Shown: one piece after another, positions 1,288 through 28,168 of the stretch | How the letters are laid out: the number at the start of each line of letters is the position of its first letter | Numbering within the stretch: position 1 is the stretch's first letter | Source: Nostoc punctiforme PCC 73102 | GTDB taxonomy: Bacteria; Cyanobacteriota; Cyanobacteriia; Cyanobacteriales; Nostocaceae | Direction: 5' to 3' | Assembly: GCF_000020025.1 (NCBI RefSeq) | Contig: NC_010628.1 | Span: 8,040,001 to 8,072,000 of the forward strand | DNA: 32,000 nucleotides | The notes under the pieces: model-generated | Databases searched by the model: none | Seen by the model: only the letters and a program-made list of their open reading frames with translations | Told to the model about the DNA's origin: nothing | Made by a program: the position numbers and the translations under genes

Positions 1288-2796
1288 ATGTCAAACTCGC
1301 TGAAAGCATCAACAGCAGGATTAGCAATTGTAGACAAATCACGTCAACGTCTAGGTTGGACAAAAACTAGCACCGCACGCTGGTGGCAAGATGCTCATAC
1401 CTCTAGAGCTACTTTACGCCGATTTTGGCAAGGCGATCGCATCCAGCGAGAAATTTTCATCGCTATCTGTCAAGCTGTTGGTATTGGAAACTGGGAAGCG
1501 ATCGCAGAATTATCCAATGCAGACTTAGAATCTACTGTAGTTATCCCCACACCTTATTTAGATTGCAATGAAGCACCCGATCTCGAAAGCTTCTATGGAC
1601 GAAATCAGGAATTGGCACAATTAGAAGAATGGCTTACCAGCCAAAACTGTAAATTAGTCACTATTAACGGTATTGCTGGTATTGGCAAAACCGCCCTAGC
1701 ACTGGCTTTAGTAGACCGCATTCAGTTAAAATTTGATTGTTTAATTTGGAAGTCTCTGCAAACTTCCCCATCTCTCATTTCCCTACTGAATAGCCTACTA
1801 AACTCCTTTGAGCAAGGCGTTGTTGTGCAGAATATTCAACAAGGTACGGCACAGCTTATACAGCAGTTACAAAAACATCATTGTCTGTTGATATTAGATG
1901 GATTAGAAGCTATTTTCTCGCAGCCAGAAGACCTCAGCTATGGTCAATTTATCCAACAATTAAGTCGAGAACGGCATCAAAGTTGTATTCTGATTAGCAG
2001 CCGCGAACAACCAAATAATATTGAAACTAATACCAAAATATATCACTGTTTAAATCTCAAAGGGTTGCCAAAAACAGAGGCTGTAGAATTATTACAATCA
2101 AGGGGATTTACAGGCAAGGAACTAGGCTTATCAGTATTAATTCAACTTTATCGCGGTAATCCCTTGGTGCTGAAACTGGTAACGCCCTTAATTCAGTCTG
2201 TATTTGGGGGGAATGTTGCTGCTTTTTTGAGTCAGCATACTCTAATTGTAGGCGATCGCTTGCGTGTAATTCTCAAACAGCAATTTGAGCAACTTTCCGG
2301 CTTAGAACAAGACATTCTCTACTGGTTGGCAATTTGGCAAGAACCTGTCTCATTCTCTCGATTGCAAACCCATTTGCTGATATCCGTTGACCCAGCGATG
2401 GTTTTAGAGGGCATTGTAGCCTTAGAAAGGCGATCGCTTTTAGAAAAATGGGTCAGCGATTATGAACTCTCATTTACATTGCAACCCCTGGTCATGAAAG
2501 TGGTGACAGATGAATTGATAGAACATACTGTTCAAGAGATCGATCGAGTTGTGCAGAGTCATGATATTCGTCATTTTCAGATATTGCGAACCCATTGGTT
2601 GCTACGACCCGGTACTGACGATATTGCAGGCGATCGCATTTTAACTCAACTTTGGAAAAAGCTCTGGCATTTGTATGGTGCAACTCTTCCACAAATCTTT
2701 AATCAGATTCTGTTGTTGTTAAAGAGTCAATCGCCTTTAGCAATGGGTTACATCGGGAGTAATGTTGCGATCCTCTCAGGAATAGACTTGTTATGA
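1288..2796 (+). CDS. STAND NTPase: N-terminal HTH-like module plus NB-ARC (AP-ATPase) domain plus winged helix, with no C-terminal repeat sensor
   Basis: Motifs present: Walker A GIAGIGKTALA, Walker B CLLILDGLE, RNBS-B-like ILISSRE, GxP motif RGNPLVLKLV, and a WH-like LEQDILYWLAIWQEPVSFSRL. The N-terminal ~75 aa resemble the module that precedes NB-ARC/WD40 proteins in filamentous cyanobacteria. Confidence 0.85.
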   Translation: MSNSLKASTAGLAIVDKSRQRLGWTKTSTARWWQDAHTSRATLRRFWQGDRIQREIFIAICQAVGIGNWEAIAELSNADLESTVVIPTPYLDCNEAPDLESFYGRNQELAQLEEWLTSQNCKLVTINGIAGIGKTALALALVDRIQLKFDCLIWKSLQTSPSLISLLNSLLNSFEQGVVVQNIQQGTAQLIQQLQKHHCLLILDGLEAIFSQPEDLSYGQFIQQLSRERHQSCILISSREQPNNIETNTKIYHCLNLKGLPKTEAVELLQSRGFTGKELGLSVLIQLYRGNPLVLKLVTPLIQSVFGGNVAAFLSQHTLIVGDRLRVILKQQFEQLSGLEQDILYWLAIWQEPVSFSRLQTHLLISVDPAMVLEGIVALERRSLLEKWVSDYELSFTLQPLVMKVVTDELIEHTVQEIDRVVQSHDIRHFQILRTHWLLRPGTDDIAGDRILTQLWKKLWHLYGATLPQIFNQILLLLKSQSPLAMGYIGSNVAILSGIDLL

Positions 2797-6409: not shown

Positions 6410-7117
6410 TTACTTGTTATACCAGGCTTTTCGCCACTGTTGCATTTGTTTAATTTCTATCTCTTGGGCTTTAACAATTTCTTGGGCTAATTTCTTAATT
6501 TCAGGGCGGTTAGACTTACTTAAGGCATCTTGCCCCATTGTTACAGCCCCTTGGTGGTGAGGAATCATCCCATTGATAAAGCGCAAATCAAACTCAGCAT
6601 CAGCTGCACCTAAGTCTTGACTCATCATCATGCCTTTCATTTGGTCAGACGACATTTCCATCGTATGACCCATTTGGCTATTGTAAGCCATCGGTTTATC
6701 TCCCGCCTTGGGATACCAAGCTTGTCGCCACTGCTTCATCTGAGTGATTTCTTGGTTTTGCGATTTGATGATATTGTCTGCTAGCTTTTTGATTTCAGGA
6801 CGTTTTGATTTCTGCTGCGCTTCTTTAGCCATTTCCACAGCCCCTTGATGGTGGGGTATCATAGCGTCGATAAATCGTAAATCAAAATTAGCATCGGCTG
6901 GGCCTAAATCCATTCCCATGCTGTGATTCATCATGCCACTACCGTGATTCATCATCTGCTTGTCATTAGCATTGGTGGTGGTTGCCTTTGTTGCTTGGCT
7001 TTGGTTCTGGGAAGCGGTACTAGTACAACCTGTCATTAACGCACTGGCTGAGGCGATCGCACTAAAGGTTAACGCCAAAAAGCCATTCCTCAAAGATACC
7101 AGTTGCATAAATCTCAC
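6410..7117 (-). CDS. DUF305-family, CopM-like periplasmic metal-binding lipoprotein
   Basis: Signal peptide with a lipobox-like LMTGC. There is a Met/His-rich stretch (MMNHGSGMMNHSMGM). The half-domain FDLRFIxxMIPHHQGAVxM...RPEIKKLA...W is internally duplicated, as in Synechocystis CopM. Confidence 0.85.
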   Translation of the reverse strand: MRFMQLVSLRNGFLALTFSAIASASALMTGCTSTASQNQSQATKATTTNANDKQMMNHGSGMMNHSMGMDLGPADANFDLRFIDAMIPHHQGAVEMAKEAQQKSKRPEIKKLADNIIKSQNQEITQMKQWRQAWYPKAGDKPMAYNSQMGHTMEMSSDQMKGMMMSQDLGAADAEFDLRFINGMIPHHQGAVTMGQDALSKSNRPEIKKLAQEIVKAQEIEIKQMQQWRKAWYNK

Positions 7118-7217
7118 CTAACAGTTTCCTAATTCTATATTTACTTCTTAGTTTTACAGCCAGAAATGAAATTAGCATGAAATCTCACTTAATTAAATAA
7201 GTCCAGTATCTTGTTGT

Positions 7218-9440
7218 TTATTTATCACTCAAAATTGTGTAAGCATCATTAACTAAGTGCATTTTCTCTTGTGCTTGTTTGAGCAGTTGCGGCTGATTTA
7301 CAAACAAATCTGGATGCCATTTTTTTACTAAAGTTCGATAAGCCTGCTTTACCTCAGCCTGAGAAGCATTTGTTTGCAATCCTAAAATGCCGTAGGCGCG
7401 GGTAATTTTATCTTTTTCCGTTTGGGTTTTTGTTTGGCTGGGTGCTTTATTGCTTTGAGTTGAATTTTGCTGTTTGCTAGTTTGAGAACTAGGCGATTGC
7501 ATCTCTGCTTTCATTCGCGCTATTTCTTCATTGAGTTCCCAATCACGAAATTTCGCCTCCACTTCTTCTGGACGCGGAGACGGAGAAGCTTTTGGCGATG
7601 GTGGTGGAGAAACAAATTCTACCCTTGTGCCACTATTTTTAGCAGTCTTTTCCTGTTGTTGCTTAATAACAGGATCTTTCTCAGGGGAAAGTTTAACTCT
7701 TTCTGGCTGTGGTGAATATTTTCTATTGGTATTTGTGTATTTTGGTATTTCTTTATAAGGTTGATGATTTGAGAGGATTTTGGCTTTTTCTAACTCTCGT
7801 AGCAACCGATTAAAAGCATTTTGTAATTGCTGCAAACCTTCACGTTTATTAGTAATTTCTCCTGGTTCTTGGCTGAATTGAAAGCAAATTACTTTTTCCG
7901 CTTGCCGTTCGTATTCAGCCAAAATGGATAACCCTTGGTTGCTAAAACTAGAAAAATAATCTTCAATTGCAGTTATACAAAGTTTAGCAACTTCCTGATG
8001 ATAAGATTCCTTTGCTAATTGCTCGTCTTGTTTTTGGATATTCTTGTTTAATAAATAAGAAATACTTCCGACGACAGCAGCCCCAACTGGACCGCCTAAC
8101 AACCAACCAATACCACCACCAACAGCAATAGAACCAGGTTCACTCAAATCATCATTATTATTTGGCTTTGGGGGTAGTATTACTTGTGGTTCGCTAGGAA
8201 AAGGAATTAATAAATCTTGCGGTCGTTCTTCTTGGAAAAACTCGTAAGCTTGATAAAGCCATTTCACAGCAGCTAATTGTAATTTATTTAGGTCTTTTTT
8301 AAGAGTATTTGTTTGCCAATCTTTAAATTTATTTTCTGCCAATGCAACTGCCGCATCAGGTTGATATTTGGTGAGTAGCTTGGGTAATTCTAGCCAATCG
8401 CGTAATTCTTCGATGCTGGTAGTGAAACCTTTATAAATTAAGTTAGCTGCTTTTTGTTTAATTTCAACTTTACTATTTTGTTTATCATCAAAGGATTTTA
8501 TTTCAAGAGCAATCGGGTCAATTTTAGCTTTTAATGATAGTTGGATTTGAGAAGCGATCGCTTGCACTCTTGGTAAACGCACACTACCACGATTTGGTTG
8601 CAAAATCCCTACAATATTTTGCAAAGCTGTTTCAAAAGCCGCTAACCCGCTACTATTGGCAGCCGCAACATCACCTTTCAATCTAGCTCTTAAAGCAGGT
8701 AAAGCATCAACACGATATAAATTACTAAAACCTGGAGGTAATTCGGCTCGAAAGCTTTCTGCAACAAACAGCAGGCGATTTTGGACTTGTTTTTGCTCGT
8801 CGGGTTCTAGCAAGTTCAGAAAATTAGCAACAAATATAACTGTTTTAATACCGCGATCTAATAGCCAATCTCGCAAATTTTCTCGTTCACCTAAAGTCAT
8901 TAACTTCCGTGCATCTAATAGTTGAATAACTAAATCTGCACCTAAAAGCTGTTCTTTGACTAAATTATCTTGTTCATCTCTATCATTTGTTCCCGGTAAA
9001 TCAAGAAATTCTACTCCTGTTTCTAAGAAGGGATGCGGACAAAAAACTTCCACAGATGCTACATCTTTTCGCATCTGCCTATTACCATCAAGAATTGCAA
9101 ATTGTTGTAGAATTTCTGTGCCACTGCGATAGATTTCTGTACCATCTACCAACATGATACGAGTCCGCACATCAGAGCCATACTTGACAGTAATCGATGC
9201 GCCTGTGGTGGGGATTAAATCAATTGGTAAGGTGCGATTTCCTAGCATGGCATTCAGTAAGGTGGACTTGCCATGATTAAAGGGGCCAAATACCGCAATG
9301 CGAAAACTAGGATTAACTAGATGATTGCAAATGGTAATTATATCTTGATGCAATTGTGATTTGCGTTCTAAATTAAGTAAACCAGATGCAGATTTCAGAG
9401 AATCTGCTAAATCCTTATAACCTGCATACTGTTGTTGCAT
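7218..9440 (-). CDS. Dynamin-like GTPase fused to a C-terminal DnaJ J-domain
   Basis: G1 motif FGPFNHGKSTLLNA and G3 motif LDLPGTND. A Gly-rich hydrophobic paddle-like segment GSIAVGGGIGWLLGGPVGAAVVGSISYLL is present. A P/S/Q-rich linker leads to a J-domain AYGILGL...AYRTLVKKWHPDLF carrying the HPD motif. Confidence 0.9.
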   Translation of the reverse strand: MQQQYAGYKDLADSLKSASGLLNLERKSQLHQDIITICNHLVNPSFRIAVFGPFNHGKSTLLNAMLGNRTLPIDLIPTTGASITVKYGSDVRTRIMLVDGTEIYRSGTEILQQFAILDGNRQMRKDVASVEVFCPHPFLETGVEFLDLPGTNDRDEQDNLVKEQLLGADLVIQLLDARKLMTLGERENLRDWLLDRGIKTVIFVANFLNLLEPDEQKQVQNRLLFVAESFRAELPPGFSNLYRVDALPALRARLKGDVAAANSSGLAAFETALQNIVGILQPNRGSVRLPRVQAIASQIQLSLKAKIDPIALEIKSFDDKQNSKVEIKQKAANLIYKGFTTSIEELRDWLELPKLLTKYQPDAAVALAENKFKDWQTNTLKKDLNKLQLAAVKWLYQAYEFFQEERPQDLLIPFPSEPQVILPPKPNNNDDLSEPGSIAVGGGIGWLLGGPVGAAVVGSISYLLNKNIQKQDEQLAKESYHQEVAKLCITAIEDYFSSFSNQGLSILAEYERQAEKVICFQFSQEPGEITNKREGLQQLQNAFNRLLRELEKAKILSNHQPYKEIPKYTNTNRKYSPQPERVKLSPEKDPVIKQQQEKTAKNSGTRVEFVSPPPSPKASPSPRPEEVEAKFRDWELNEEIARMKAEMQSPSSQTSKQQNSTQSNKAPSQTKTQTEKDKITRAYGILGLQTNASQAEVKQAYRTLVKKWHPDLFVNQPQLLKQAQEKMHLVNDAYTILSDK

Positions 9441-9562
9441 AGTTCTCGTTCTCAGCTTCTAGCTAGTCATACATATCGTTGAGGCTAACATCTCACATTA
9501 TTAGGCATAATTAAACATATAATAAAATTTTAGTTCGTAGTGAGCAATTTATCGTTTATAGG

Positions 9563-9680
9563 CTAATACGGTTCAGTTAAGGTTAAAACTCTTTCTTTAT
9601 CAAGGTCAAATTTTTTAACGAACCGCAGAGGCGCAGAGGGAACAGAGAGAAGAAAAAAATGCTTAACTGAACCGTATTAG
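9563..9680. mobile_element. 118-bp MITE with perfect 19-bp terminal inverted repeats and an 8-bp target-site duplication
   Basis: TIR-L ctaatacggttcagttaag (9563..9581) is the exact reverse complement of TIR-R cttaactgaaccgtattag (9662..9680). The element is flanked by the direct repeat tttatagg at 9555..9562 and 9681..9688. Confidence 0.75.
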
Positions 9681-9748
9681 TTTATAGGCAAGCTTATTAA
9701 GACTAAACTTCTGACACCATTATTTTTTGTTAGGTTGCGCCAAATTTC

Positions 9749-9776
9749 CTTTCTTTCTTTCTTTCTTTCTTTCTTT
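9749..9776. repeat. (CTTT)7 microsatellite
   Basis: Read directly from the sequence. It lies in the spacer between the two dynamin-like genes, about 310 bp upstream of the DLP-J start codon. Confidence 0.9.
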
Positions 9777-9892
9777 GTGTCCTTTGCACCCTTTGCAGTT
9801 CGTTCCTAATTGCCAAAGTCAATTATTTTAACGAACCGCAAAGAACGCGAAGAAAAGAAACATTTAAATGAATCGTATTGACTTATAGTTAT

Positions 9893-9916
9893 GGGAGGCA
9901 TAGTTCAGAGCCTCCC
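9893..9916. terminator. Possible stem-loop downstream of BDLP
   Basis: gggaggc-N10-gcctccc forms a 7-bp GC-rich stem about 50 nt after the BDLP stop codon. No clear U-tract follows, so the call is weak. Confidence 0.3.
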
Positions 9917-9964
9917 TATAAACATTTCTAGCTTCTATCTAAGAATGAGAGTAATAAACTGTTA

Positions 9965-12046
9965 TTAGCTATAGTAAGCTAATAAATTGCTATACGCCGC
10001 CTCGATTTTTTGCAACTGAGCTATTACATCTTCCTGTAAGTTTTTTAAACGATTGAACTCACTCTCACGATTGATTTCACGGGTTTGTTTCTGTTTGACT
10101 AAATTATCTAATTCGGATTTGCGAGATACAATATCATCGTTAATCCGCTTACTCACTTCTCTTTCGTAAGAGTCAAAACACTCTTTTACGGCATTATATA
10201 CAACCTGAGATTGCTCGTGTGCCACTTGTGGTAAGTGTTTAACTAATTCTTTCTTCGCCGTTTTAACTAACTCCCTACGTGCTTGATCTGCTTGCAAAAA
10301 TCCTACTCCCAAGCCTAGCAACGCAAATCCGATTGGACCAAGCAAAATACCCGTCACTGCTGTAATTATCCCGCCAATACCAATTACAGTGAAGTAGTTT
10401 AACAAAATATTTTTCCAATCGAATCCGGCACCGGCTAGTGCGAAACCAGCAAGATTTCCTTTAGACAGTGATAACAATCCCATTGCCCATTTTGCCCAGC
10501 CGGGAGAGTTATCTTCTTCAGCAGTAGTAGTGGTATGTACCTTTACGTCTTTTCCGGTGAGCTTTTCTGTAATTTGGTCTGTGATTTGATTGTAAGATGC
10601 ACCATATTGTGATGCACTGCGAGAAAGTTCTTTAAAAGCTGCGTTAATATCTTTTTCAGCAGTTAATGTCCAAGCCGCAGATTTGTCGGTAATATATTGC
10701 TCAAAGGCTTTTTGCAGTGCGGCGTTAAATGCTTCTCGTTTACCACTACTGAGAAAATCAAACAAATTTAATTCTGGTTGATAGCGTAAGAAGTCGTTTT
10801 CAAAGGTATTACCTAAGTTTAAAACGTAACTGCGGAAAGATTCAGAAATCGTTCTTGCTTGAGTATCTCTTGTATTGATAATTTCTTTTTGGAATTCATC
10901 CCGAATACCTGTGAGTTTGTTAAACTCAGGTTCCACTGAATCAATCCGTTTTTTTAATTCATTTACATCTTGCTCAAGTAATGGTATACGTCTTGCAACT
11001 GCTTCGCGGGTATGATTGCAGGCAAGTCTTGCCAAGGTTCTGACTTGACGAAGTTCTGCGATCGCACGTTCTCTGGTAAGAAAAGTATTAAGCGAATCCA
11101 TAAACTTCGGAAAGCCAGTCCCATCTAAATCAGCTTGCGGGTTCTTCAACCGTCGTCTGAGTGCTTGAATCGACGAAAGCTCAAATACCCGTTCGTCATA
11201 AATATTCTGACCTTCTACAGTACAATATTCTGCTAAATTTGCGTTAAATACTTGCCGCAATCTATTCTCAGATGCTTGTAATTCTTCGACATCATCAGGA
11301 TCGATCAATGATTCTCGCACCTGATCCCAAGCATTAACTAAAAAGAAAACTGTTAATCCCCGACCTTTGATATAATTTTCTAGGTAGCGACGCTCACCCA
11401 AGGTACAAGGTTGAGAAGCTCTCATCACAAACAGAATTGCATGGCAGTTATTTACATAACCCAAAGATAATTCGTTTCGCGCTTCTGTATCATTCAATCC
11501 TGGACTATCGACAATTTCGATTCCCTTTTGTAGTAGCGTTAAGGGATACTCAACTACTGCATAATCAACATCGGGAAAGGCTTGTTTTTTCTCTTGCTCT
11601 AGTTTTTTAGCTTCAGCCGGATCAATAGTATATTTATATTTAAAGTTCTGAAAATCTAGCTGTTGGGGGCTTTTTCCATCATTAAAATGAATGGTAACTT
11701 TCTTTTCTGGTCCATAACGTAAAACTGTTAACACTGCGGTACAAGGGTTAACATCGCTTGGTAATAAGTTTTCACCAATTAAGGCGTTAAGAAAAGTACT
11801 TTTTCCCCGCTTCATATCGCCTAATACTAAAAGGCGAAATACACCTTGTTGGAGGTTTTTACTCGCTATTGTAATATCTTCAATATCTCGCTCTAAACTG
11901 AGTTTTCCTGATGAGGAGTCCCCAGCTAACTCAGCCTTATTAATTGTTTCAGCCAGTTTATTCAAACATACAGACATTTCCGATCGCACTTGAGCAACCC
12001 GCTCTAAATCTTGGATAAATCTGTCAGTTGCTACTTGATTCACCAT
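9965..12046 (-). CDS. Bacterial dynamin-like protein (BDLP)
   Basis: G1 motif LGDMKRGKSTFLNA, G3 motif VDSPGLND, and NAWD in place of the G4 motif. The paddle/membrane-insertion region is GFALAGAGFDWKNILLNYFTVIGIGGIITAVTGILLGPIGFALLGLGVGFL. From memory, the sequence matches the N. punctiforme BDLP used for the 2006 crystal structures. Confidence 0.95.
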   Translation of the reverse strand: MVNQVATDRFIQDLERVAQVRSEMSVCLNKLAETINKAELAGDSSSGKLSLERDIEDITIASKNLQQGVFRLLVLGDMKRGKSTFLNALIGENLLPSDVNPCTAVLTVLRYGPEKKVTIHFNDGKSPQQLDFQNFKYKYTIDPAEAKKLEQEKKQAFPDVDYAVVEYPLTLLQKGIEIVDSPGLNDTEARNELSLGYVNNCHAILFVMRASQPCTLGERRYLENYIKGRGLTVFFLVNAWDQVRESLIDPDDVEELQASENRLRQVFNANLAEYCTVEGQNIYDERVFELSSIQALRRRLKNPQADLDGTGFPKFMDSLNTFLTRERAIAELRQVRTLARLACNHTREAVARRIPLLEQDVNELKKRIDSVEPEFNKLTGIRDEFQKEIINTRDTQARTISESFRSYVLNLGNTFENDFLRYQPELNLFDFLSSGKREAFNAALQKAFEQYITDKSAAWTLTAEKDINAAFKELSRSASQYGASYNQITDQITEKLTGKDVKVHTTTTAEEDNSPGWAKWAMGLLSLSKGNLAGFALAGAGFDWKNILLNYFTVIGIGGIITAVTGILLGPIGFALLGLGVGFLQADQARRELVKTAKKELVKHLPQVAHEQSQVVYNAVKECFDSYEREVSKRINDDIVSRKSELDNLVKQKQTREINRESEFNRLKNLQEDVIAQLQKIEAAYSNLLAYYS

Positions 12047-12062
12047 AATATTTACACCTTAA

Positions 12063-12389
12063 TTAAAGATTGGTTTTTTTAGATTCCAAAAATAATTTGT
12101 AAGACATCCATCCCAGCGCCGCAACAATAATAAACCCAGCCAACACTGAGGCTATTCTCACTGCAACTAGTGTTACTACACCAAGAGCAAACAGCTTTCC
12201 ACCCAGAATCACTTTTTGCATCCAAGGTTTCTGAGAATTTTCTGGCTGATGCTTCACAGTTTGATGAAAAGCTGCATTGGTAGTATGGAGGCTAGTTTCC
12301 ATTTCCCGGAGTCGCAATTCAACTTCTCGTTCTCGTAGTAAACATTCCCGGAGTTCAAGTTCTTTTTGGCGATCGCTTTCAGATGTCAT
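12063..12389 (-). CDS. Small coiled-coil plus two-TM membrane protein, probably co-transcribed with BDLP
   Basis: The N-terminus is a charged heptad-like segment, QKELELRECLLREREVELRLREMETSL. The C-terminus has two hydrophobic helices (LFALGVVTLVAVRIASVLAGFIIVAALGWMSY). Its stop codon is 16 nt upstream of the BDLP start on the same strand. Confidence 0.65.
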   Translation of the reverse strand: MTSESDRQKELELRECLLREREVELRLREMETSLHTTNAAFHQTVKHQPENSQKPWMQKVILGGKLFALGVVTLVAVRIASVLAGFIIVAALGWMSYKLFLESKKTNL

Positions 12390-12563
12390 CGGTATCCACT
12401 CCGTCTAAGACAATGAAAAGATGTCAGCATTTACTCGCTAATCATGCTGTATCCTAACTTACGTAAATCTTTAAAAACCCCAGTAAAATTACTATTTTAA
12501 TTGCCTGCTAAATTGAAGCTGTAGTTAGCCACTACAAAATGCACCTGCTTCCCAGAACTAAAG

Positions 12564-12738
12564 CCAATACAGTTCAGTTAAGCATTTTTTTCTTTTCTCT
12601 GTTTGCTCTGCGTCTCTGTGGTAGCCTGACGCTCCTTCTCTGCGAGACGCTGCGCGAACGTCGCTACCGCTTCGCTAATGCGTCTACGTAAAAAATTGAC
12701 TTTAACAAAGAGTTTGAGCCTTAACCGAACCGTATTGG
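12564..12738. mobile_element. Second copy of the 9563-type MITE in opposite orientation, carrying a nested insert
   Basis: The TIRs ccaatacagttcagttaag and cttaaccgaaccgtattgg match in 17 of 19 positions when one is reverse-complemented. The flanking 8-mers aactaaag and aaccaaag match in 7 of 8 positions. The interior shares the gcatttttttcttttctctg...ctctgcg core with the first copy and also contains an unrelated repeat (ttctctgcgagacgctgcgcg) that recurs at about 12920. Confidence 0.65.
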
Positions 12739-13068
12739 AACCAAAGCGAAGCACCGAACTACTAAGGTGCGATCGCATGATCGCAATGGGCATTATTCAC
12801 TGTAAATGATGCCTAACTTTTGCCAGTTACGCCGTCTGTTTAGAACCTGCTTTTGAGTCTGCGGTCGATTTTAACCGGGTAATGGTGGCTTTACGAATGC
12901 GTAGGCGTAGCCCGCACTTCTCTACGAGACGCTCCGCGTAGCTTGCTTCCACGAAGTGGTACGGCAAGCTCAGTGACCACCGCAGGCATCACTCTTGCGT
13001 ACCCCGCCTGTCATCTCGTATTCCCGGCTGTCTTTGCCATACTTCAACGCCACACCACTTAACAAGCG

Positions 13069-13250
13069 TTCTGAACAAAAAGACTTGTGTTCTGAACAAA
13101 CGGGCTTATGTTCTGAACGAACGGGCTTGTGTTCTGAACAAACGGGCTTATGTTCTGAACGAACGGGCTTGTATTCTGAACGAATGGGCTTGTGTTCTGA
13201 ACGGATGGGCTTGTGTTCTGAACGAATGGGCTTGTGTTCTGAACAAACAT
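13069..13250. repeat. 21-bp tandem array, about 8.7 copies (consensus ttctgaacgaacgggcttgtg)
   Basis: Units start at 13069, 13090, 13111, 13132, 13153, 13174, 13195, 13216 and 13237, with point variants. All reading frames stay open only because 21 is a multiple of 3. Confidence 0.95.
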
Positions 13251-13353
13251 ATAAAACTAATATTTTAATTTTGAAATACATCTATTAAAGAGAGACGCGA
13301 TAAATGCTTTCTCTAAGTAGTAGTGCAAAATTAAATATACATCTGTCATTCTG

Positions 13354-13398
13354 GAGTTTAGTGGGTCATGAATTGAAAGTTCATGACCCACTAAACTC
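13354..13398. other. Perfect 19-bp-stem hairpin / palindrome
   Basis: gagtttagtgggtcatgaa (13354..13372), loop ttgaaag, then ttcatgacccactaaactc (13380..13398). The stem can extend by about 3 more pairs, one of them G:U. Confidence 0.85.
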
Positions 13399-14014
13399 TA
13401 GTACAATAGAACAAAAATTTTTGCAAGTATTAATACTGCTTTAAATGTATAAATATTTATATTTTACTTAAATATATTGATTAGCGTAGGCGTAGCCCGC
13501 CGTAGGCATCGCACCTTTTTTATCCGACCTCACAAAATTGCGTTGCTCCCTATTAGCATACGTTGTGGCATCATTTGACGATGTTTATCTAGGTGGGTGA
13601 GGGCGATCGCTCTTGGCGGCGGGTACGCCGGGAGCGCAATCGTCTGCTAGTTCCTGCTCAATGTCGATGTTTTTCGAGTTGCATTTAGAGCGATGCATAG
13701 TTAATGTATTAAACGACACTTATTTTTCGGAGCTTTACTATGTAGTACTACTTAGTTATGCGTACACCATAGCCTTGGTAAGGAGAGCCAGATTCGAGCG
13801 GTTGCCTTTGCAACTGCCATTTGGGCAATCGCTCAAATTCATACTTCAATTATGCAACGCCCACTTTTTTACATTGCGCCCGAACAAACAGGAGGCTGTC
13901 AGGCAATCACGAATCATTAGCAAGGCTGTAACCATAAAATTACCTGGCTTTTCCCGCCGCTATGCTCAACTGGTGGCAGGCAGTGGCAGACGCTCTGCTA
14001 TGGCTTTACTTTTA

Positions 14015-14344
14015 TTAATCATCATCAGAATCCCAGGGACCCCCGTGATCATAACCCCCGTGATCATAACCCCCGTGACCATAACCCCCGTGACCATAAC
14101 CCCCGTGACCATAACCCCCGTGACCATAACCCCCGTGACCATAACCCCCGTGACCATAACCCCCGTGACCATAACCCTCGTGACCATAGCCCCCGTGACC
14201 ATAACCTCCGTGACCATAACCCCCGTGACCATAACCCCCGTGACCATAACCTCCGTGACCATAACTATAACCACCAGATAGAAGCTGCTGTTCGTTTGTG
14301 GATAGTTCTGTCAGCAACTCACATATGTTAATTTGATCCGACAT
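14015..14344 (-). CDS. Double-glycine-leader secreted peptide precursor with a (GYGHG)n repeat core
   Basis: A GAGG Shine-Dalgarno sequence lies 7 nt upstream of the ATG at 14344 (ctGAGGtaattATG). The leader MSDQINICELLTELSTNEQQLLSGG fits the GG-leader consensus (L-12, E-8, L-4, G-2, G-1). The core is YSYGHG(GYGHG)n...GYDHGGYDHGGPWDSDDD. Confidence 0.7.
   Translation of the reverse strand: MSDQINICELLTELSTNEQQLLSGGYSYGHGGYGHGGYGHGGYGHGGYGHGGYGHEGYGHGGYGHGGYGHGGYGHGGYGHGGYGHGGYGHGGYDHGGYDHGGPWDSDDD
14041..14265. repeat. 15-bp tandem repeat x15 (ccccgtgaccataac) encoding the GYGHG core
   Basis: Read directly. The variant units are gatcataac (changing G to D) and ccctcgtgaccatagc (changing G to E). 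Confidence 0.95.
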
Positions 14345-14965
14345 AATTACCTCAGTTTTATTCATTACCTGTTACAAACTGTACCGATCTGAAATACAAA
14401 TTTGGAGCGATCAAAATCTGGAATTTTAATGCTCCAGACCATTCAAAACCTAATTGAAATTCTCATGGAAGTCATTGTGGCGAACCAACAATGTATCTTA
14501 ACTTTTATATTTTTCATTGGAGTAGCTACTCCTTCTTTTTATAGATATGGTTATCTATAAAAAGTCTGAAATTTTCTTGATTAGGCGATGTTACAAAAAT
14601 AGTGTGAATTGCAGCAACAAATCGATGAAAACCGGAATCAAGGTATAAAAATTTTTAAGCAGCTTTCGTAACTTCTCAATAAGCGCTGGTAAAGCTAATA
14701 GAGGTGTTTAAGGAAGACAATGGGATAAATCCGGAATGAGCTAGGGTTGCTTTGAGGGCAAAAATCTGGTTTAACAACTTACAAGTGTTTGGGTCTTATC
14801 TGAACTGTATTGCATCGCGTCTGATCTTTCCGCAATCCAGGGATTTATAGAGACGCGATGAATCGCGTTTTCTTCCTCAAAATAGAATTTTAGGCAAATT
14901 AGATGTAAATCATGCCACCGCTATAAGCCAAAATTTTTATAGATACTCACACAGGTATAGTCAAA

Positions 14966-24787: not shown

Positions 24788-27700
24788 TTAATATTCATCT
24801 ATAAATTGAGGATGAACCCAAAGAAATTCACGGCGTTTGTTTTGCACCCGCACTAGACCACCAAAACTAGGATCTTTCTCTTTTAATAAGGTGTGTAATT
24901 CTCGCAAAATTGAGCCTTGAGCGCGGATTGCATCGCCTTCCAAGAAGGAAGCATCGCTCTTGGACTTTCCAGCCAAAGCCATATCACTTCCCTTCAAAGT
25001 AGACTCGATGCTTTTCTGTCCTAAATCAAGTTGTTCTTCAATGGCTTTGTAGGTAGTATCATCCAGTATAAATTTAGTTGCCGAACCTGCCACAGGTAAG
25101 ACTAGGCTCAGGGTTCCGGTCAAAATTCTGAGATAGGGGACTGCTTTGGTGAACCACTCACGCGGTAAGTCTAATTCATAGACTCCCTTTTTCTTGTCGT
25201 TGGGATTTAAAGCTGGAAGTGGTTGACGTGCGTGTTCGCACCAGAGGGTGAGTTGAAACTTAGCACTAATCCATTTGGGGCGATCAAAAAATCCTGGTTC
25301 AATGGGTTTAAAGCTGAACAGGCGCGGGCCATCTTTCGCTTCATCGGTGAGCATCTGCATCAGTTCTGCAAACTGCTGATCGACCTGGCTTAAAATGGTA
25401 CGTTGCTCCTGAGATAATACCTGAAAGCGTGCTTGATCTAGGCGATCGTACATAACCAAATCTTTGCGGATGACGTTTAGCTCGTCTTTCACAATGTATC
25501 GGAACTGCTCAATGCCAATTTCTTGGGATGGGGGTTGAGCAGTTGGCGCGTTATTCAGCAATTGATCGATGTTTTGCCATTCGCCACACCCGGAAATGGG
25601 ACACGGGAACTCATGGCGATTTTTCTTTTTGCTTTCAATTAGTTTTTGTACCTCAAACAGTCCGTTTCCAGGGGCATTCATACCGCAAGTTTCAATGCAG
25701 GGAACCATCACATTACAACGCAATCCTTCCCAGAAATTCTCGACTAGCCATTTAATCTCTTCTGTGAGATATGACAGGAACCTTTCTGGATAAGCTGCCC
25801 GTACCGTAATTTTTACATCAGTGCCAACATATTCCAGCAATGCCCGACCGTTGTAATCATTGTCAAGCATTAAGCCCCGTTGCCAATGGATGCTGTTTTC
25901 GTAATTCGCCCGTCCCAGCGAGTATTTGTGCAACCGAACAATTAACTGGTAAAACAAACCTTCTGCTACTGCAAACTGTCCGCGACTGTCCACAATGCGG
26001 CAGATTTGCACCTGTTGTCTATCTCCCGCTTCTGGTTGCTCTCCCCAATTGGGCAATGGCTCCGGGCGTGTGTCGGGAACGAGTTGAGCAATTAGGCTGG
26101 TATTGCTAGTTTCTGACGGATCGAAAACCACTTTGTAGGATAGATCAAAGCGTTCCATCAGCCGCAGAAAGATTGGATGCAATTTTGGGGGGTAGCCTTC
26201 TTCGCCTGCAAATGGCGGATGGCTCCACAACTGGCTGAGATGTTTAAATTCCACTAAACCGTTGCGTTTGCGTGTTGTTTCATCATCTAGCACGAAGCTG
26301 ATCGCCTTTGCCAGCCAATCGGGTTTGAGAATGACGATATCGCGTAGTGTTGGGTCGTAATGGTAATGGATGAAATGCCCTAATATATGGGAGATGCGAA
26401 GAAACAGTTCTGCTTGCTCCTCATCGATTCCCTGTTCAGCGCAGATGGTAATGACATCATCGTAGGGGAGATAGGCTTTGTCACTTGTCTGTAAAGTTTC
26501 CCGCACCTGTTGCCACTTTGCTGGAACGGAACGCCCCATTTCGGGAAGAGATGCAGCGACACGAGCAATAGTATCTTTTAATTCTGCAAGACCAGCGCAA
26601 TCCGTCGTATCCTGGTTGGGTTTGCTGTCTACATGGAAGAAATCGATTACCGTATCTTTGCCGAATTGATCCAGAATTTCTTGTCTGTCAATGTCCGGTT
26701 GTCGCTGTCCGGGGCCGCCGTGGGTTGCGACGACCAACACCTTTGCATCTGGTTCTCGATTTTTGATCAGCGTAATCCACTCTTTGACAAAGCCCTGCTG
26801 GGGACCTTCCCGTGGCTTCCAGATCACCAGATACACGGCTGGGGCACTGAAAAACAACTGGTGCGTCGGTCGATAAACCCGTTGACCGCCAAAATCCCAA
26901 CCATTGAGTGATATCTCTGTGCCACTGTCGGGATCGGTGACGATTACAGATTTAATTTCAATCCCGTGAGTCGTGGGGCGACCATCCTCCCATTCATCTC
27001 CCCGCAATGCTCCCAACAGACAACTTTTGCCCACCTCACCCTCACCAATTAGGATCAGTTTGGCTTCATTCAGCGTCACCTGTGCTTCTGATCTTGCCCG
27101 CAGGTATTGCAAGACTGCTTCAGTGCCTTGTTCGTAGGCAGCAGCAAGATCAGGATTGAGGGGATTGTGGTCAAGCTGGATATCGTCCAGGTGAGGAAGT
27201 TGCCCTAGCGATGCTGGCAAGTCGGTTAGACAGTTGCTTCCTAGATAGAGTTCTTCCAACTGTGGGAATTCATTCAGCCAGTCAGGCAAAAAATGCAGTT
27301 CACAGTTATTTGCCCAAATCCTCCGAATTTGCTTAATTCGTTGAATGCATGGAGGAAGTTTGCTCAGTGGATTACCACCATCATCAGCTCCTAAAATGAT
27401 AAATTCTAAACTTTGGAGTTTATCCAGTGATTTAGGAAGTTCCGAAATTTGGTTGCCACCAATGCTGAGTATTTCTAATACATGCAGATCACAAATCCAT
27501 GAAGGAATTACTTCTAAATCGTTTGCGTAAATATATAATTCTTTCAACCCTTTCAGTTCTTTTATGACTGATGGAACTTGTCTGAGTAGATTACTTCCAC
27601 AATCAAATATCTCTAAATACAGTAGGCGACTTAATGAATTTGGCAGTTCCGTTAATTCGTTGTGGGAGAGGTCAAATGATTGTAACTGAGTCAGGGATGC

Positions 27701-28168
27701 GATCGCTTCTGGCAGTTCTGTCAATTGGTTGTTAGAGAGGTCAAGCCGTTGCAACCGAGTCAGGGATGCGATCGCTTCTGGCAGTTCTGTCAATTGGTTG
27801 TTGCGGAGGTTAAGCTCTTGCAACTGAGCCAAGGATGCGATCGCTTCTGGCAGTTCTGTCAATTGGTTGTTAGAGAGGTCAAGCCGTTGCAACCGAGCCA
27901 AGGATGCGATCGCTTCTGGCAGTTGGGTCAGTTTATTATTGGAGAGGTCAAGCGTTTGCAACTGGGTCAAGGATGCGATCGCCTCTGGCAGTTGGGTCAC
28001 TTGGTTTCTGGAGAGGTCAAGCTGTTGCAACTGTGTCAGAGATGCGATCGCTTCTGGTATCTCAGTGAGTTCTATCTTGCTGAGATCGAGTTCTATTGCT
28101 CCCTCTTGCCGTGCTTTTTCAATGCGCTGCTCTGCTTTTTGATAAGCTTTATCTCTTGCCATGAGCAA
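24788..28168 (-). CDS. ROCO protein: LRR plus Roc GTPase plus COR, then a Cys cluster and an uncharacterised C-terminal region of ~300 aa
   Basis: About 13 LRRs (LxxLxLxxNxLxxLPxxI). Roc motifs are G1 [11 protein letters not shown]3 WDFGGQ and a VVATHGG G4-like motif. A COR-like region follows ([10 protein letters not shown]..., [10 protein letters not shown]...). Next comes PCIETCG-x28-CPISGCGEW, then a tail with no recognisable motif. Confidence 0.9.
27616..28090. repeat. Near-identical 69-bp tandem units encoding the N-terminal LRRs, each carrying one in-phase HIP1 site
   Basis: GCGATCGC occurs at 27699, 27768, 27837, 27906, 27975 and 28044, exactly 69 bp apart. It encodes the A-I-A of the repeated PEAIASL. 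Confidence 0.95.

Follow-up and report, generated by a model that had tools for sequence, protein, structure and literature searches.

Among bacterial dynamins, BDLP1 of Nostoc punctiforme PCC 73102 serves as the structural archetype, and its lack of GTPase stimulation has long suggested a missing partner: Jilly et al. (2018) give the GTPase as stimulated neither by self-assembly nor by lipid, and propose from this that a partner exists. The window (the whole 32,000-nt stretch of N. punctiforme DNA that was analysed) contains here three open reading frames, all on the minus strand: 12063..12389 (108 aa; ACC84776, B2IZD4), 9965..12046 (693 aa; Npun_R6513, B2IZD3), and 7218..9440 (740 aa; ACC84774, B2IZD2), separated by gaps of 16 nt and 524 nt. 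The coordinates reproduce exactly the sizes, common orientation, and 16-nt spacing given in a preliminary description of this DNA. The middle gene, which that description took to be canonical BDLP, indeed encodes the crystallised bacterial dynamin-like protein: residues 1–693 are 100% identical to N. punctiforme BDLP (PDB 2J68/2J69/2W6D; 1538 bits), with a Dynamin_N domain and a bacterial dynamin-like helical domain (4e-183). The 740-aa product, BDLP2, is a 'Tandem A'-clade dynamin-like protein (DLP) fused to a J-protein, and the 108-aa product is a DUF3040-type small membrane protein. We conclude that the locus is the BDLP1-BDLP2 unit of N. punctiforme PCC 73102, a vertically inherited cyanobacterial module, and that the unit really has four parts, not three, when the J-domain part is counted as a captured, once-separate gene; we hold the composition and evolutionary history given here with high confidence. 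The locus thus supplies three candidate partners for BDLP1: BDLP2, the small membrane protein, and a dedicated Hsp70 co-chaperone. BDLP2 and the small protein are conserved next to BDLP1 across cyanobacterial orders; the association of the J co-chaperone with BDLP2 is patchier.

The core facts about this locus are already published, and what the present analysis adds is refinement of a known system rather than a system of a new kind. The 'Tandem A / Tandem B' genes of Jilly et al. (2018) and the 'BDLP1/BDLP2' tandem (Low and Lowe, 2006; Michie et al., 2014) are the same locus, BDLP1 being Tandem B and BDLP2 being Tandem A. Michie et al. (2014) already drew the tandem and a '525 bp' non-coding region, Jilly et al. 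(2018) defined the partner clades and put forward a hetero-oligomer hypothesis, and Liu et al. (2018) discussed the DnaJ-like C-terminus of B2IZD2. The preliminary description held that, as far as its author knew, the neighbours of BDLP1 had not been examined as a functional unit; this stands for the small gene, of which we found no mention, but not for the tandem, the gap, and the DnaJ-like tail. The available portions of Jilly et al. (2018), Low and Lowe (2006), and Michie et al. (2014) contain no description of the small gene upstream of BDLP1, of the repeats that make up the gap, of the J gene as split or fused, or of the G4 substitution. New here are the Nostocales synteny, the repeat-inserted gap, the J gene fusion, and the N-F-x-N G4 motif.

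BDLP1 lies directly upstream of BDLP2 in 74 of 74 Nostocales loci, and the small gene lies upstream of BDLP1 in 69 of 72; of these 69 loci, 53 have a spacer of exactly 16 nt and 63 one of 13–19 nt. In the window this spacer (12047..12062, minus strand; TTAAGGTGTAAATATT) runs from the stop of the small gene to the BDLP1 ATG and contains an SD-like AAGGTG. The BDLP1-BDLP2 pair is also kept in Microcoleus-, Aliterella-, Waterburya-, and Geitlerinema-type loci, and gene order, orientation, and the 16-nt spacing between the small gene and BDLP1 are maintained in Nostocales and as far afield as Oscillatoriales and Pleurocapsales. BDLP2-clade genes without an adjoining BDLP1 also occur. The results show that synteny of the unit, as expected from the three-gene module first proposed, is near-universal in Nostocales. 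The small gene is dispensable in places, being decayed in 3 of 72 Nostocales loci and absent from Aliterella-type loci. BDLP1 and BDLP2 are adjacent, co-oriented, divergent DLP genes conserved as a pair, as in paired-DLP operons, and we infer that the unit is co-transcribed and that the two proteins form a hetero-complex.

The dynamin-like part of BDLP2 matches Dynamin_N over residues 48–206 (6e-25; 88.6 bits, cut-off 27), and its best PDB match is BDLP, over the GTPase region only; the original assignment of this gene to a second, divergent dynamin-like GTPase family protein is upheld. The GTPase domain (8811..9305, minus strand; aa 46–210) carries the DLP GTPase motifs G1 (GPFNHGKS) and G3 (DLPG), both invariant among BDLP2 orthologues. 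Its G4 motif is NFLN (N206-F-L-N209; nt 8814–8825), not N-x-x-D: N-F-x-N is invariant in 30 BDLP2-clade sequences (18 from Nostocales and 12 from outside), and the canonical [NT]-[KR]-x-D, which is N-A-W-D in BDLP1, is absent from BDLP2 and from the same 30 orthologues. Further along, an invariant, glycine-rich hydrophobic segment (8043..8135, minus strand; aa 436–466; GSIAVGGGIGWLLGGPVGAAVVGSISYLLNK) is a candidate membrane paddle, flanked in the BDLP2 model by long helices (289–405 and 480–552). G4 was placed by sequence alignment together with strand 199–205 of the low-confidence model and, because that model is weak (mean pLDDT 59.8), both the neck/trunk geometry and the G4 placement rest on the alignment. 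The best Foldseek matches of the same model are BDLP, IniA, Cj-DLP, and mitofusins, at E = 3.5e-12 and with TM-scores of only 0.26–0.30, and the Pfam bacterial dynamin helical domain was not detected in BDLP2. We conclude that BDLP2 appears to be a shorter, divergent DLP with a hydrophobic paddle-like segment of its own and an unusual G4 (NFxN).

C-terminal to the dynamin-like part lie a variable, disordered P/Q/S-rich linker (7569..7775, minus strand; aa 556–624), which the ~550-aa orthologues from outside Nostocales lack, a conserved pre-J helix (7500..7568, minus strand; aa 625–647, modelled as a helix at 624–647; EEVEAKFRDWELNEEIARMKAEM), and a J-domain (7221..7415, minus strand; aa 676–740). 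The J-domain is matched by Pfam DnaJ (682–740; 1.5e-15; 57.4 bits, cut-off 27.8) and by many PDB J-domains, and is modelled as helices in 673–738 with pLDDT of 73–85. Residues H709-P710-D711, K698, K706, and K707 are invariant in it, and neither HPD nor the basic helix II varies in any member of the fused clade or in the stand-alone J-proteins. Stimulation of Hsp70 depends on the HPD tripeptide and basic helix II, and the J-domain of BDLP2 is predicted to be a competent candidate for interaction with Hsp70.

A J-domain is present in all 78 loci with the 3' end of the gene on the contig. At 50%-identity resolution, the combination of Dynamin_N and DnaJ occurs only in the cluster of the query and in one 60% relative; the nearest BDLP2 relatives outside (40–53% identity) have 540–580 aa and end at query residue ~551. 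In non-heterocystous cyanobacteria BDLP2 has ~550 aa, and in some loci a homologous J-protein is encoded by a separate gene just downstream: a 146-aa DnaJ gene begins 4 nt after BDLP2 in Aliterella (L083), and a 117-aa DnaJ gene 86 nt after it in Waterburya (L084). These two stand-alone J-proteins align to BDLP2 residues ~625–740 with 40% identity and start with the same helix motif; the pre-J helix, homologous to the N-terminus of stand-alone J-proteins, is thus kept in separate and fused forms. Because other cyanobacteria have a short BDLP2 and a homologous, separate J gene downstream, BDLP2 of Nostocales is a gene fusion, and in a neighbor-joining tree without support values the fused forms make up one clade. 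The 75 assessable BDLP2 loci comprise 29 with a fused J-domain, 8 with a separate J gene, and 38 with no J gene; among the last are Microcoleus-type loci, in which the small gene, BDLP1, and BDLP2 are all retained. Since 38 of 75 loci have no adjoining J gene, Hsp70 recruitment is not essential to the core BDLP1-BDLP2 pair; where the J gene is present, its history, split and then fused, provides independent genomic evidence that Hsp70 and the dynamin pair work together. The captured, formerly separate J gene had not been recognised in the earlier reading of the locus.

The small protein matches Pfam DUF3040 (PF11239) over residues 26–94 (30.2 bits, cut-off 24.7), a match that is also precomputed for many of its orthologues. 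A charged N-terminal helix (aa ~3–36) is followed by a linker with conserved residues T44, H47, and Q48 and by a hydrophobic stretch of ~43 residues (aa 58–100) with a conserved R/K at position 79. Two transmembrane helices, as claimed in the preliminary description, are plausible for this stretch, although the AlphaFold2 monomer model has one continuous helix from 55 to 107. Full-length homologues with 30–44% identity occur in the Microcoleus, Waterburya, and Geitlerinema loci.

Precedents for a pair of this kind come from other bacteria, in which paired DLPs work as hetero-complexes. Campylobacter jejuni Cj-DLP1/Cj-DLP2 (5OWV/5OXF; Liu, Noel and Low, 2018) likewise are encoded by two divergent, adjacent genes in one orientation, match BDLP1 and BDLP2 by sequence and fold, and include one partner with an extra, non-canonical domain proposed to serve pairing. 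The two systems differ in that the extra domain in Nostoc is an HPD J-domain that began as a separate co-chaperone gene, where Cj-DLP1 has its assembly domain, and in that a DUF3040 membrane protein precedes the Nostoc pair whereas the C. jejuni operon has an HcpA-like beta-lactamase. In mycobacterial iniBAC, an operon induced by cell-wall antibiotics, the membrane protein IniB is followed by the DLPs IniA and IniC, and IniA matches by sequence and fold; however, no homology to IniB was detected for the Nostoc small protein, a DUF3040 member, and ini has no J-domain.

Our preferred reading, to which we assign a probability of about 0.5, is that the locus encodes a heterotypic dynamin module for membrane remodelling, with the J-domain as its means of recruiting DnaK. 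The three genes would be co-expressed, and the hairpin in the BDLP1-BDLP2 spacer may tune the BDLP1:BDLP2 ratio. BDLP1 and BDLP2 would form a heterotypic complex on membranes, like Cj-DLP1/2 and IniA/IniC, with the small DUF3040 protein acting from within the membrane as receptor or nucleator; by its tethered J-domain, BDLP2 would bring in ATP-bound DnaK, either to the dynamin lattice once assembled or to the membrane site of that lattice; and DnaK would then remodel, disassemble, or recycle the lattice. Auxilin and CDJ2 are J-proteins that recruit Hsp70 to disassemble or recycle membrane-remodelling polymers. The Nostoc module would resemble auxilin/GAK-Hsc70 on clathrin, and J-protein/Hsp70 on VIPP1 (IM30) oligomers of chloroplasts, in placing a J-domain at such a polymer, but there is no homology outside the J-domain, and the Nostoc polymer would be a dynamin-like GTPase. 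VIPP1 oligomers are under Hsp70 control according to abstracts on VIPP1-cpHsc70-1. The Hsp70-recruitment mechanism, taken by itself, we advance tentatively, at somewhat less than even odds. The history of the J gene, split and then fused, turns a passing literature remark into a concrete, mutationally testable hypothesis. A bolder version, which we regard as rather doubtful, would make the locus a built-in dynamin 'uncoating' system of cyanobacteria, in which a regulatory BDLP2 and BDLP1 assemble at the DUF3040 receptor and the J-protein calls in DnaK, by which the lattice is stripped or reset; BDLP2 might then possibly be a non-GTP-specific GTPase or a pseudo-GTPase, the Asp of G4 being replaced by Asn. 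Such a system, if real, would give prokaryotes a functional counterpart of auxilin-Hsc70.

The intact J-domain, tethered by a long, flexible linker, would also suit a dynamin that targets a chaperone: BDLP2 and its J-tail would bring DnaK to membrane sites, such as zones of thylakoid or plasma-membrane damage or biogenesis, where DnaK would act on other clients, in quality control or insertion of membrane proteins. Jilly et al. (2018) note DnaK or DnaK-domain genes adjacent to those of a separate cyanobacterial DLP clade, and an abstract describes DnaK3 as binding thylakoid membranes and implicates it in their biogenesis. Sequence data do not separate this reading from lattice remodelling; retention of the pre-J helix in stand-alone and fused forms suggests a specific partner inside the module, and we consider chaperone targeting unlikely. 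We find it distinctly harder to accept that the J-like tail works without Hsp70, as a structural domain for assembly, and hetero-dimerises with BDLP1 in the way that the assembly domain of Cj-DLP1 does with Cj-DLP2; this was proposed for B2IZD2, as a possible analogue, by Liu, Noel and Low (2018). The conserved pre-J helix could be an interaction motif of this kind; the invariant HPD and basic helix II, in fused and stand-alone forms alike, are nonetheless hard to explain without Hsp70, and the tail cannot be a general pairing device because many lineages keep the BDLP1-BDLP2 pair without any J protein.

The preliminary description also suggested a link to anti-phage defence of the 'Dynamins' type. 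On this reading the module would be LeoABC/DynA-like and would delay lysis by sealing or stabilising membranes during infection. E. coli LeoABC and B. subtilis DynA bring multiple DLPs together and are linked to membrane protection or vesiculation, DynA delaying phage-induced lysis according to a review. BDLP1 matches the PADLOC LeoBC profile over its full length (1.8e-12), and BDLP2 matches LeoA (3.9e-14) and LeoBC (9.7e-9, aligned to residues 45–650). These scores are, however, low (about 45–51 bits), far below those of close family members, and indicate family-level similarity only; the small protein has no PADLOC match. LeoABC belongs to a pathogenicity island and DynA consists of two fused DLPs, whereas a core-like character, vertical inheritance, and a J-domain mark the Nostoc unit. 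Its stable synteny throughout the Nostocales loci is unlike patchy defence islands, the genes directly beside it are metabolic, and three unrelated genes separate it from the nearest STAND NTPase, at a distance of ~4.4 kb; neither a defence-island context nor a patchy horizontal distribution was found. The context and the inheritance pattern thus lend the suggested defence role no support, and we judge it very improbable. Least probable of all is that the genes are adjacent yet functionally independent, with BDLP2 in this strain separately transcribed and acting alone and the small gene an unrelated neighbour: long gaps, strong spacer hairpins (in other genera, a U-run comes after some of them), and BDLP2-clade genes without BDLP1 could be read in this way, but order, orientation, and 16-nt spacing are conserved across orders, the mostly-hairpin 56-nt spacer of several genomes leaves no room for an independent promoter, and the minus strand of the 524-nt gap contains no sigma-70-like site.

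The preliminary description explained the 524-nt gap (9441..9964, minus strand) mainly by repeat insertions into a once short spacer, and comparison with relatives confirms this. In relatives, BDLP1 and BDLP2 are 56 to 2140 nt apart (median 156.5); the minimal, 56-nt spacer contains a 13-bp hairpin (z −3.6 to −6.1), insertions have left its outer stem in place around them, and in the window the outermost ~30 nt on each side of the gap are the two ancestral spacer flanks. We conclude that the gap is secondary, made by nested repeat and MITE insertions into an ancestral hairpin spacer of ~56 nt; with its hairpins and MITE, it could possibly allow or force independent transcription of BDLP2 in this strain. 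The main insertion is a short, non-coding, MITE-like element (9554..9689) with a 130-nt core (9557–9686), 25-nt terminal inverted repeats (9557–9581 and 9662–9686; 92% complementary), and a flanking target-site duplication of 9–10 nt, the direct repeat GTTTATAGGC, at 9554–9563 and 9680–9689. The gap also holds a (CTTT)7 microsatellite (9749..9776; 7.0 copies, 100% matches) and a degenerate second repeat copy (9774..9860), an imperfect inverted repeat with 31-nt arms (74% complementary), of which 30 nt (9814–9843) match the MITE interior at 87% identity. The window contains 4 occurrences of a 19-mer of the terminal repeat, where chance would give 0.01. A second copy of the same family (12564..12738; 175 nt) occupies the presumptive promoter/5' region of the unit and ends 175 nt upstream of the ATG of the small gene. 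Further copies lie at non-homologous sites in at least 6 other Nostoc loci (e.g. L037, L053, L012, and L067), and the closest relative (L001) has an orthologous copy (93%).

The three genes lie co-oriented on the minus strand, with the 108-aa open reading frame of the small protein (12389..12063), the 693-aa BDLP1 (12046..9965) and the 740-aa BDLP2 (9440..7218) separated, by their ORF coordinates in the window, by 16 nt and 524 nt, respectively; the observations in the preliminary description are accurate in coordinates, sizes and both separations. The middle gene product (B2IZD3, Npun_R6513) is, as had been proposed, the crystallised Nostoc punctiforme BDLP (2J68/2J69/2W6D), with 693/693 residues (100%) identical, and exact look-ups identify BDLP2 as ACC84774/B2IZD2 and the small protein as ACC84776/B2IZD4 of N. 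punctiforme PCC 73102. In BDLP2, Dynamin_N (residues 48-206) and, at the C-terminus, DnaJ (682-740) both score above their Pfam thresholds, as does DUF3040 in the 108-aa protein. The locus is a known one, in which the archetypal BDLP stands beside a partner already described: according to Jilly et al. (2018), BDLP1 belongs to 'Tandem B', one of two cyanobacterial DLP clades defined there, its neighbour in the other, 'Tandem A', is a proposed hetero-oligomerisation partner, and a different clade has DnaK-domain genes alongside. Remarks on the BDLP1/BDLP2 pair, on the gap and on the J-domain are already in print; the earlier interpretation is largely right, and its suggestion that the neighbours of BDLP had not been considered as a unit is too strong. 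Neither the small upstream gene, nor the repeats within the gap, nor a split J gene came up in our literature search. The present analysis adds a four-part module in which the gene fusion is documented, the small membrane partner is conserved and the G4 motif is atypical. In one literature supplement 'Npun_R6512' carries the label hpsU/WcaF, apparently through a typing error for the hps locus.

Scanning species-representative genomes yielded 345 loci with a BDLP2 relative, of which the best 80 (73-96% identity, all Nostocales by sequence; L001-L080) were analysed; lineages beyond Nostocales were sampled via representative and metagenome searches. BDLP1 (82-98% identity) lies directly upstream of BDLP2 on the same strand in 74/74 loci with sufficient flanking sequence. 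The small gene is present in 69/72 Nostocales loci, and every Nostocales locus whose 3' end is on the contig (78 of 78) has the J-domain. In 53 of 69 loci precisely 16 nt separate the small-gene stop from the BDLP1 ATG; the junction reads TAA-TTAAGGTGTAAATATT-ATG and contains an SD-like AAGGTG. The three exceptions (L027, L035, L063) show clear decay or deletion of the small gene, which has been replaced with its last codons left in one locus, shortened by an internal deletion in another and reduced to degenerate sequence in the third; either the gene is dispensable in some strains or these losses are MAG assembly artefacts. The results establish the composition and the conservation of the module. 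The DUF305 gene (6410..7117, co-oriented, 100 nt past BDLP2) was rejected as a fourth member, because its synteny does not extend beyond the genus Nostoc and it is missing from L072-L080. Copies of BDLP2 85-90% identical to that of N. punctiforme also occur on MAG contigs labelled 'uncultured Acetobacteraceae' (L013, CAZZZY010000312.1) and 'Chroococcales' (L065, L066), labels that probably reflect bin contamination or mislabelling.

Orthologues of the small protein share a charged N-terminal helix, a T-x-x-H-Q linker and a hydrophobic stretch of ~43 residues with a conserved central Arg/Lys. The two transmembrane helices first assigned to it could plausibly form a hairpin such as that described for other DUF3040 proteins; the AF2 model (pLDDT 76.8) draws helix 3-36, a disordered linker and a single unbroken helix 55-107. 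In loci of the Microcoleus, Waterburya and Geitlerinema types BDLP1 is likewise preceded by full-length homologues, of 30-44% identity, and the small gene therefore travels with BDLP1 far outside Nostocales, independent of the J gene. The characterised DUF3040 proteins Cgl2168, Rv2169c and SCO2097 are accessory subunits of membrane complexes. Aliterella-type loci carry, in place of the DUF3040 gene, a multi-TM protein of ~170 aa, which occurs in some non-Nostocales versions of the module (L083 3324-3854 and L084 5437-5943, the Aliterella and Waterburya loci, whose products of 176 and 168 aa are 33% identical; also L091, L095, L098, L102, L113, L114, L118 and L136) and has no homologue in the window or the 80 Nostocales loci.

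The BDLP1-BDLP2 gap had been read as repeat insertions into a once tight arrangement, and comparison of spacers upholds this reading. Among the best 80 of 345 loci, all Nostocales, the distance from the BDLP1 stop to the BDLP2 ATG ranges from 56 to 2140 nt (median 156.5), the 524 nt of the window lying in the upper tail. Nostoc foliaceum FACHB-393 is one strain with a 56-nt gap. Spacers of 56-59 nt consist mostly of a 13-bp hairpin, CTCGTTCCCAGCT-TCT-AGCTGGGAACGAG (z -3.6 to -6.1), whose 3' arm carries GAGGAA just 5' of the BDLP2 ATG; spacers of 122-138 nt keep the outer stem and hold added sequence within the loop. The gap in the window retains at its ends a degenerate left flank, TTACTCTCATTCTTAG..., and right flank, ...AGCTGAGAACGAGAACT, of the ancestral spacer, and between them a MITE-like 130-nt element whose inverted termini are 25 nt long and which is flanked by a duplication of 9-10 nt (9554-9689 in all), together with part of another copy of that element and (CTTT)7. 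Copies of the MITE occur at non-homologous sites in other Nostoc genomes, and an orthologous copy occurs in the closest relative. A second, longer family member (175 nt; 12564-12738) lies 175 nt upstream of the small-gene ATG, so that the 5' region of the unit and its internal spacer both bear the element. We conclude that the gap is secondary.

A strong spacer hairpin is always there in the loci compared (L014, L026, L028, L029, L047, L054 at ~7945-8000, L068, L064, L078, L080), with its 3' arm adjoining the BDLP2 ribosome-binding region; in other genera a different palindrome, in some cases followed by a U-run, takes its place. The Nostoc-type stem is mostly locus-specific, but the CCCGACTTCTT palindrome of other genera is dispersed, and cross-genus covariation therefore cannot be claimed as proof of hairpin function. 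The hairpin may act as a processing or attenuation signal. Right after the BDLP2 stop in L005, L008, L010, L011, L016, L017, L022, L023 and L025 (~10225-10310) stands the palindrome CCCGACTTCTTnAAGAAGTCGGG, a dispersed motif absent from the window and likely the 3'-end hairpin of the unit in many Nostoc loci. An Rfam scan of window positions 7000-13400 gave no RNA family at E <= 0.1. A promoter and terminator scan, which gave no site on the minus strand of the gap, returned fewer promoter-like sites than in shuffled controls and is uninformative.

An alignment of 18 orthologues defines the anatomy of BDLP2. The G1 (GPFNHGKS) and G3 (DLPG) motifs are unchanging, whereas G4 (residues 206-209, window 8814-8825) reads N-F-L-N rather than N-x-x-D, the corresponding motif of BDLP1 being N-A-W-D. 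The form N-F-x-N is invariant in 30 BDLP2-clade sequences (the 18 and 12 non-Nostocales), from Nostocales to Pleurocapsales. Replacement of the G4 Asp by Asn moves Ras-like GTPases toward xanthine nucleotides, and the motif suggests that BDLP2 may differ in nucleotide specificity or act as a regulatory pseudo-GTPase. C-terminal to the GTPase motifs the alignment shows an invariant glycine-rich hydrophobic segment (436-466), a variable P/Q/S-rich linker (~556-624), a conserved helix (625-647, consensus EAKFRNWELDEEIARMKAEM) and the J-domain, whose HPD is unchanging. An AF2 model from an 18-sequence alignment is of low confidence (pLDDT 59.8), and its use was confined to secondary structure and to searching for fold similarity at family level; it has an alpha/beta GTPase core, long helical hairpins flanking the hydrophobic segment, a disordered linker, a helix at 624-647 and a confident J-domain; its top Foldseek matches are all dynamin-like (BDLP, IniA, Cj-DLP, mitofusins).

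When 1.84 billion representatives were searched exhaustively, Dynamin_N and DnaJ occurred together only in the cluster of the query and in a single further protein of 60% identity. The relatives that come next (40-53% identity, 540-580 aa), which belong to Xenococcaceae, Coleofasciculus, Microcoleus, Symploca, Moorena, Aliterella, Geitlerinema and Waterburya, align up to query residue ~551 and are without a J-domain. Other relatives bear different add-on domains (SH3_3, a WD40 propeller and an N-terminal Lon substrate-binding domain in P0265, P0284 and P0324), and the clade seems prone to domain accretion. In Aliterella atlantica a BDLP1-like gene, a BDLP2-like gene (544 aa) and a gene for a 146-aa DnaJ protein follow one another at 4-nt intervals; a Waterburya contig has, in order, the small protein, two BDLP1 paralogues, the 168-aa membrane protein, a BDLP2-like protein and a 117-aa DnaJ protein. 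The stand-alone J-proteins match window BDLP2 at ~625-740 with 40% identity (E ~1e-27, meaningful in relative terms only, given the tiny set), and share with it the starting helix (stand-alone M-E-D-L-E-G-K-F-R-S-L-E-I... vs fused ...P-E-E-V-E-A-K-F-R-D-W-E-L...). Across 87 further loci (7 look-ups and 80 metagenome contigs), 75 of them assessable, the J-domain is fused in 29/75, encoded by a separate gene (-40 to +177 nt) in 8/75 and lacking in 38/75. An NJ tree of the DLP core, built without bootstrapping, groups all fused forms in one clade and places the split state in two other clades. The results establish the fusion history: judged by sequence, the BDLP2 J-domain is a captured gene, once separate. 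Several non-heterocystous lineages also have a tandem BDLP1 duplication (two ~690-aa paralogues) before BDLP2, giving three consecutive DLP genes (L084 1020-5333; L085 1753-5948; also L097, L099, L110, L118, L119).

We propose that the unit's genes would be co-expressed, that BDLP1 and BDLP2 would form a hetero-complex on membranes with the small protein as putative membrane receptor, and that the J-domain would recruit DnaK to this assembly, which the chaperone may disassemble or recycle, or at whose site it may act. In the Cj-DLP1/2 pair the two dynamin-like proteins activate one another. A J gene found both split and fused is classical 'Rosetta-stone' evidence and argues for a real functional link; J-less lineages exist, and the chaperone is therefore an accessory and not a core requirement. 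In a rival account the chaperone would be brought to clients other than the dynamin assembly. In another, the J-like tail would be an Hsp70-independent assembly domain.

A further alternative, that the unit serves anti-phage defence, has in its favour matches to the PADLOC LeoBC and LeoA profiles of the 'Dynamins' class, but these are weak, the small protein has no match, and a mobile defence island is hard to reconcile with vertical synteny this stable; such synteny is compatible with a role in protecting membranes during infection. The unit's neighbours encode Rieske/PaO oxygenases, DUF305, cysteine synthase, hydantoinase and GNAT proteins; some kilobases away, not adjacent to the unit, lie an NB-ARC/STAND NTPase (1288-2796, plus strand, 502 aa) and an LRR-Roc-COR (ROCO) GTPase (24788-28168, minus strand, 1126 aa). 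The last rival considered is that the unit's genes would be functionally independent.

Two repeat-bearing reading frames lie upstream of the unit. A 116-aa ORF (14015-14365, minus strand), with no Pfam match, has a leader-like start of double-glycine type (...ELSTNEQQLLSGG) followed by GGYGH repeated ~15 times, for which a 15-nt tandem repeat (14039-14265, 96% matches) codes, and may specify a Gly/Tyr/His-rich repeat peptide that is secreted or processed. A minus-strand ORF (12830-13281) contains a 21-nt x 8.6 tandem repeat (13068-13248); the C-terminal part of this ORF (SERLLSGVALKYGKDSREYEMTGGVRKSD...) matches an ORF of ~130 aa that is intact in L027 and L063, where it lies upstream of BDLP1, and the repeat expansion looks to have disrupted or remodelled this ORF in PCC 73102.
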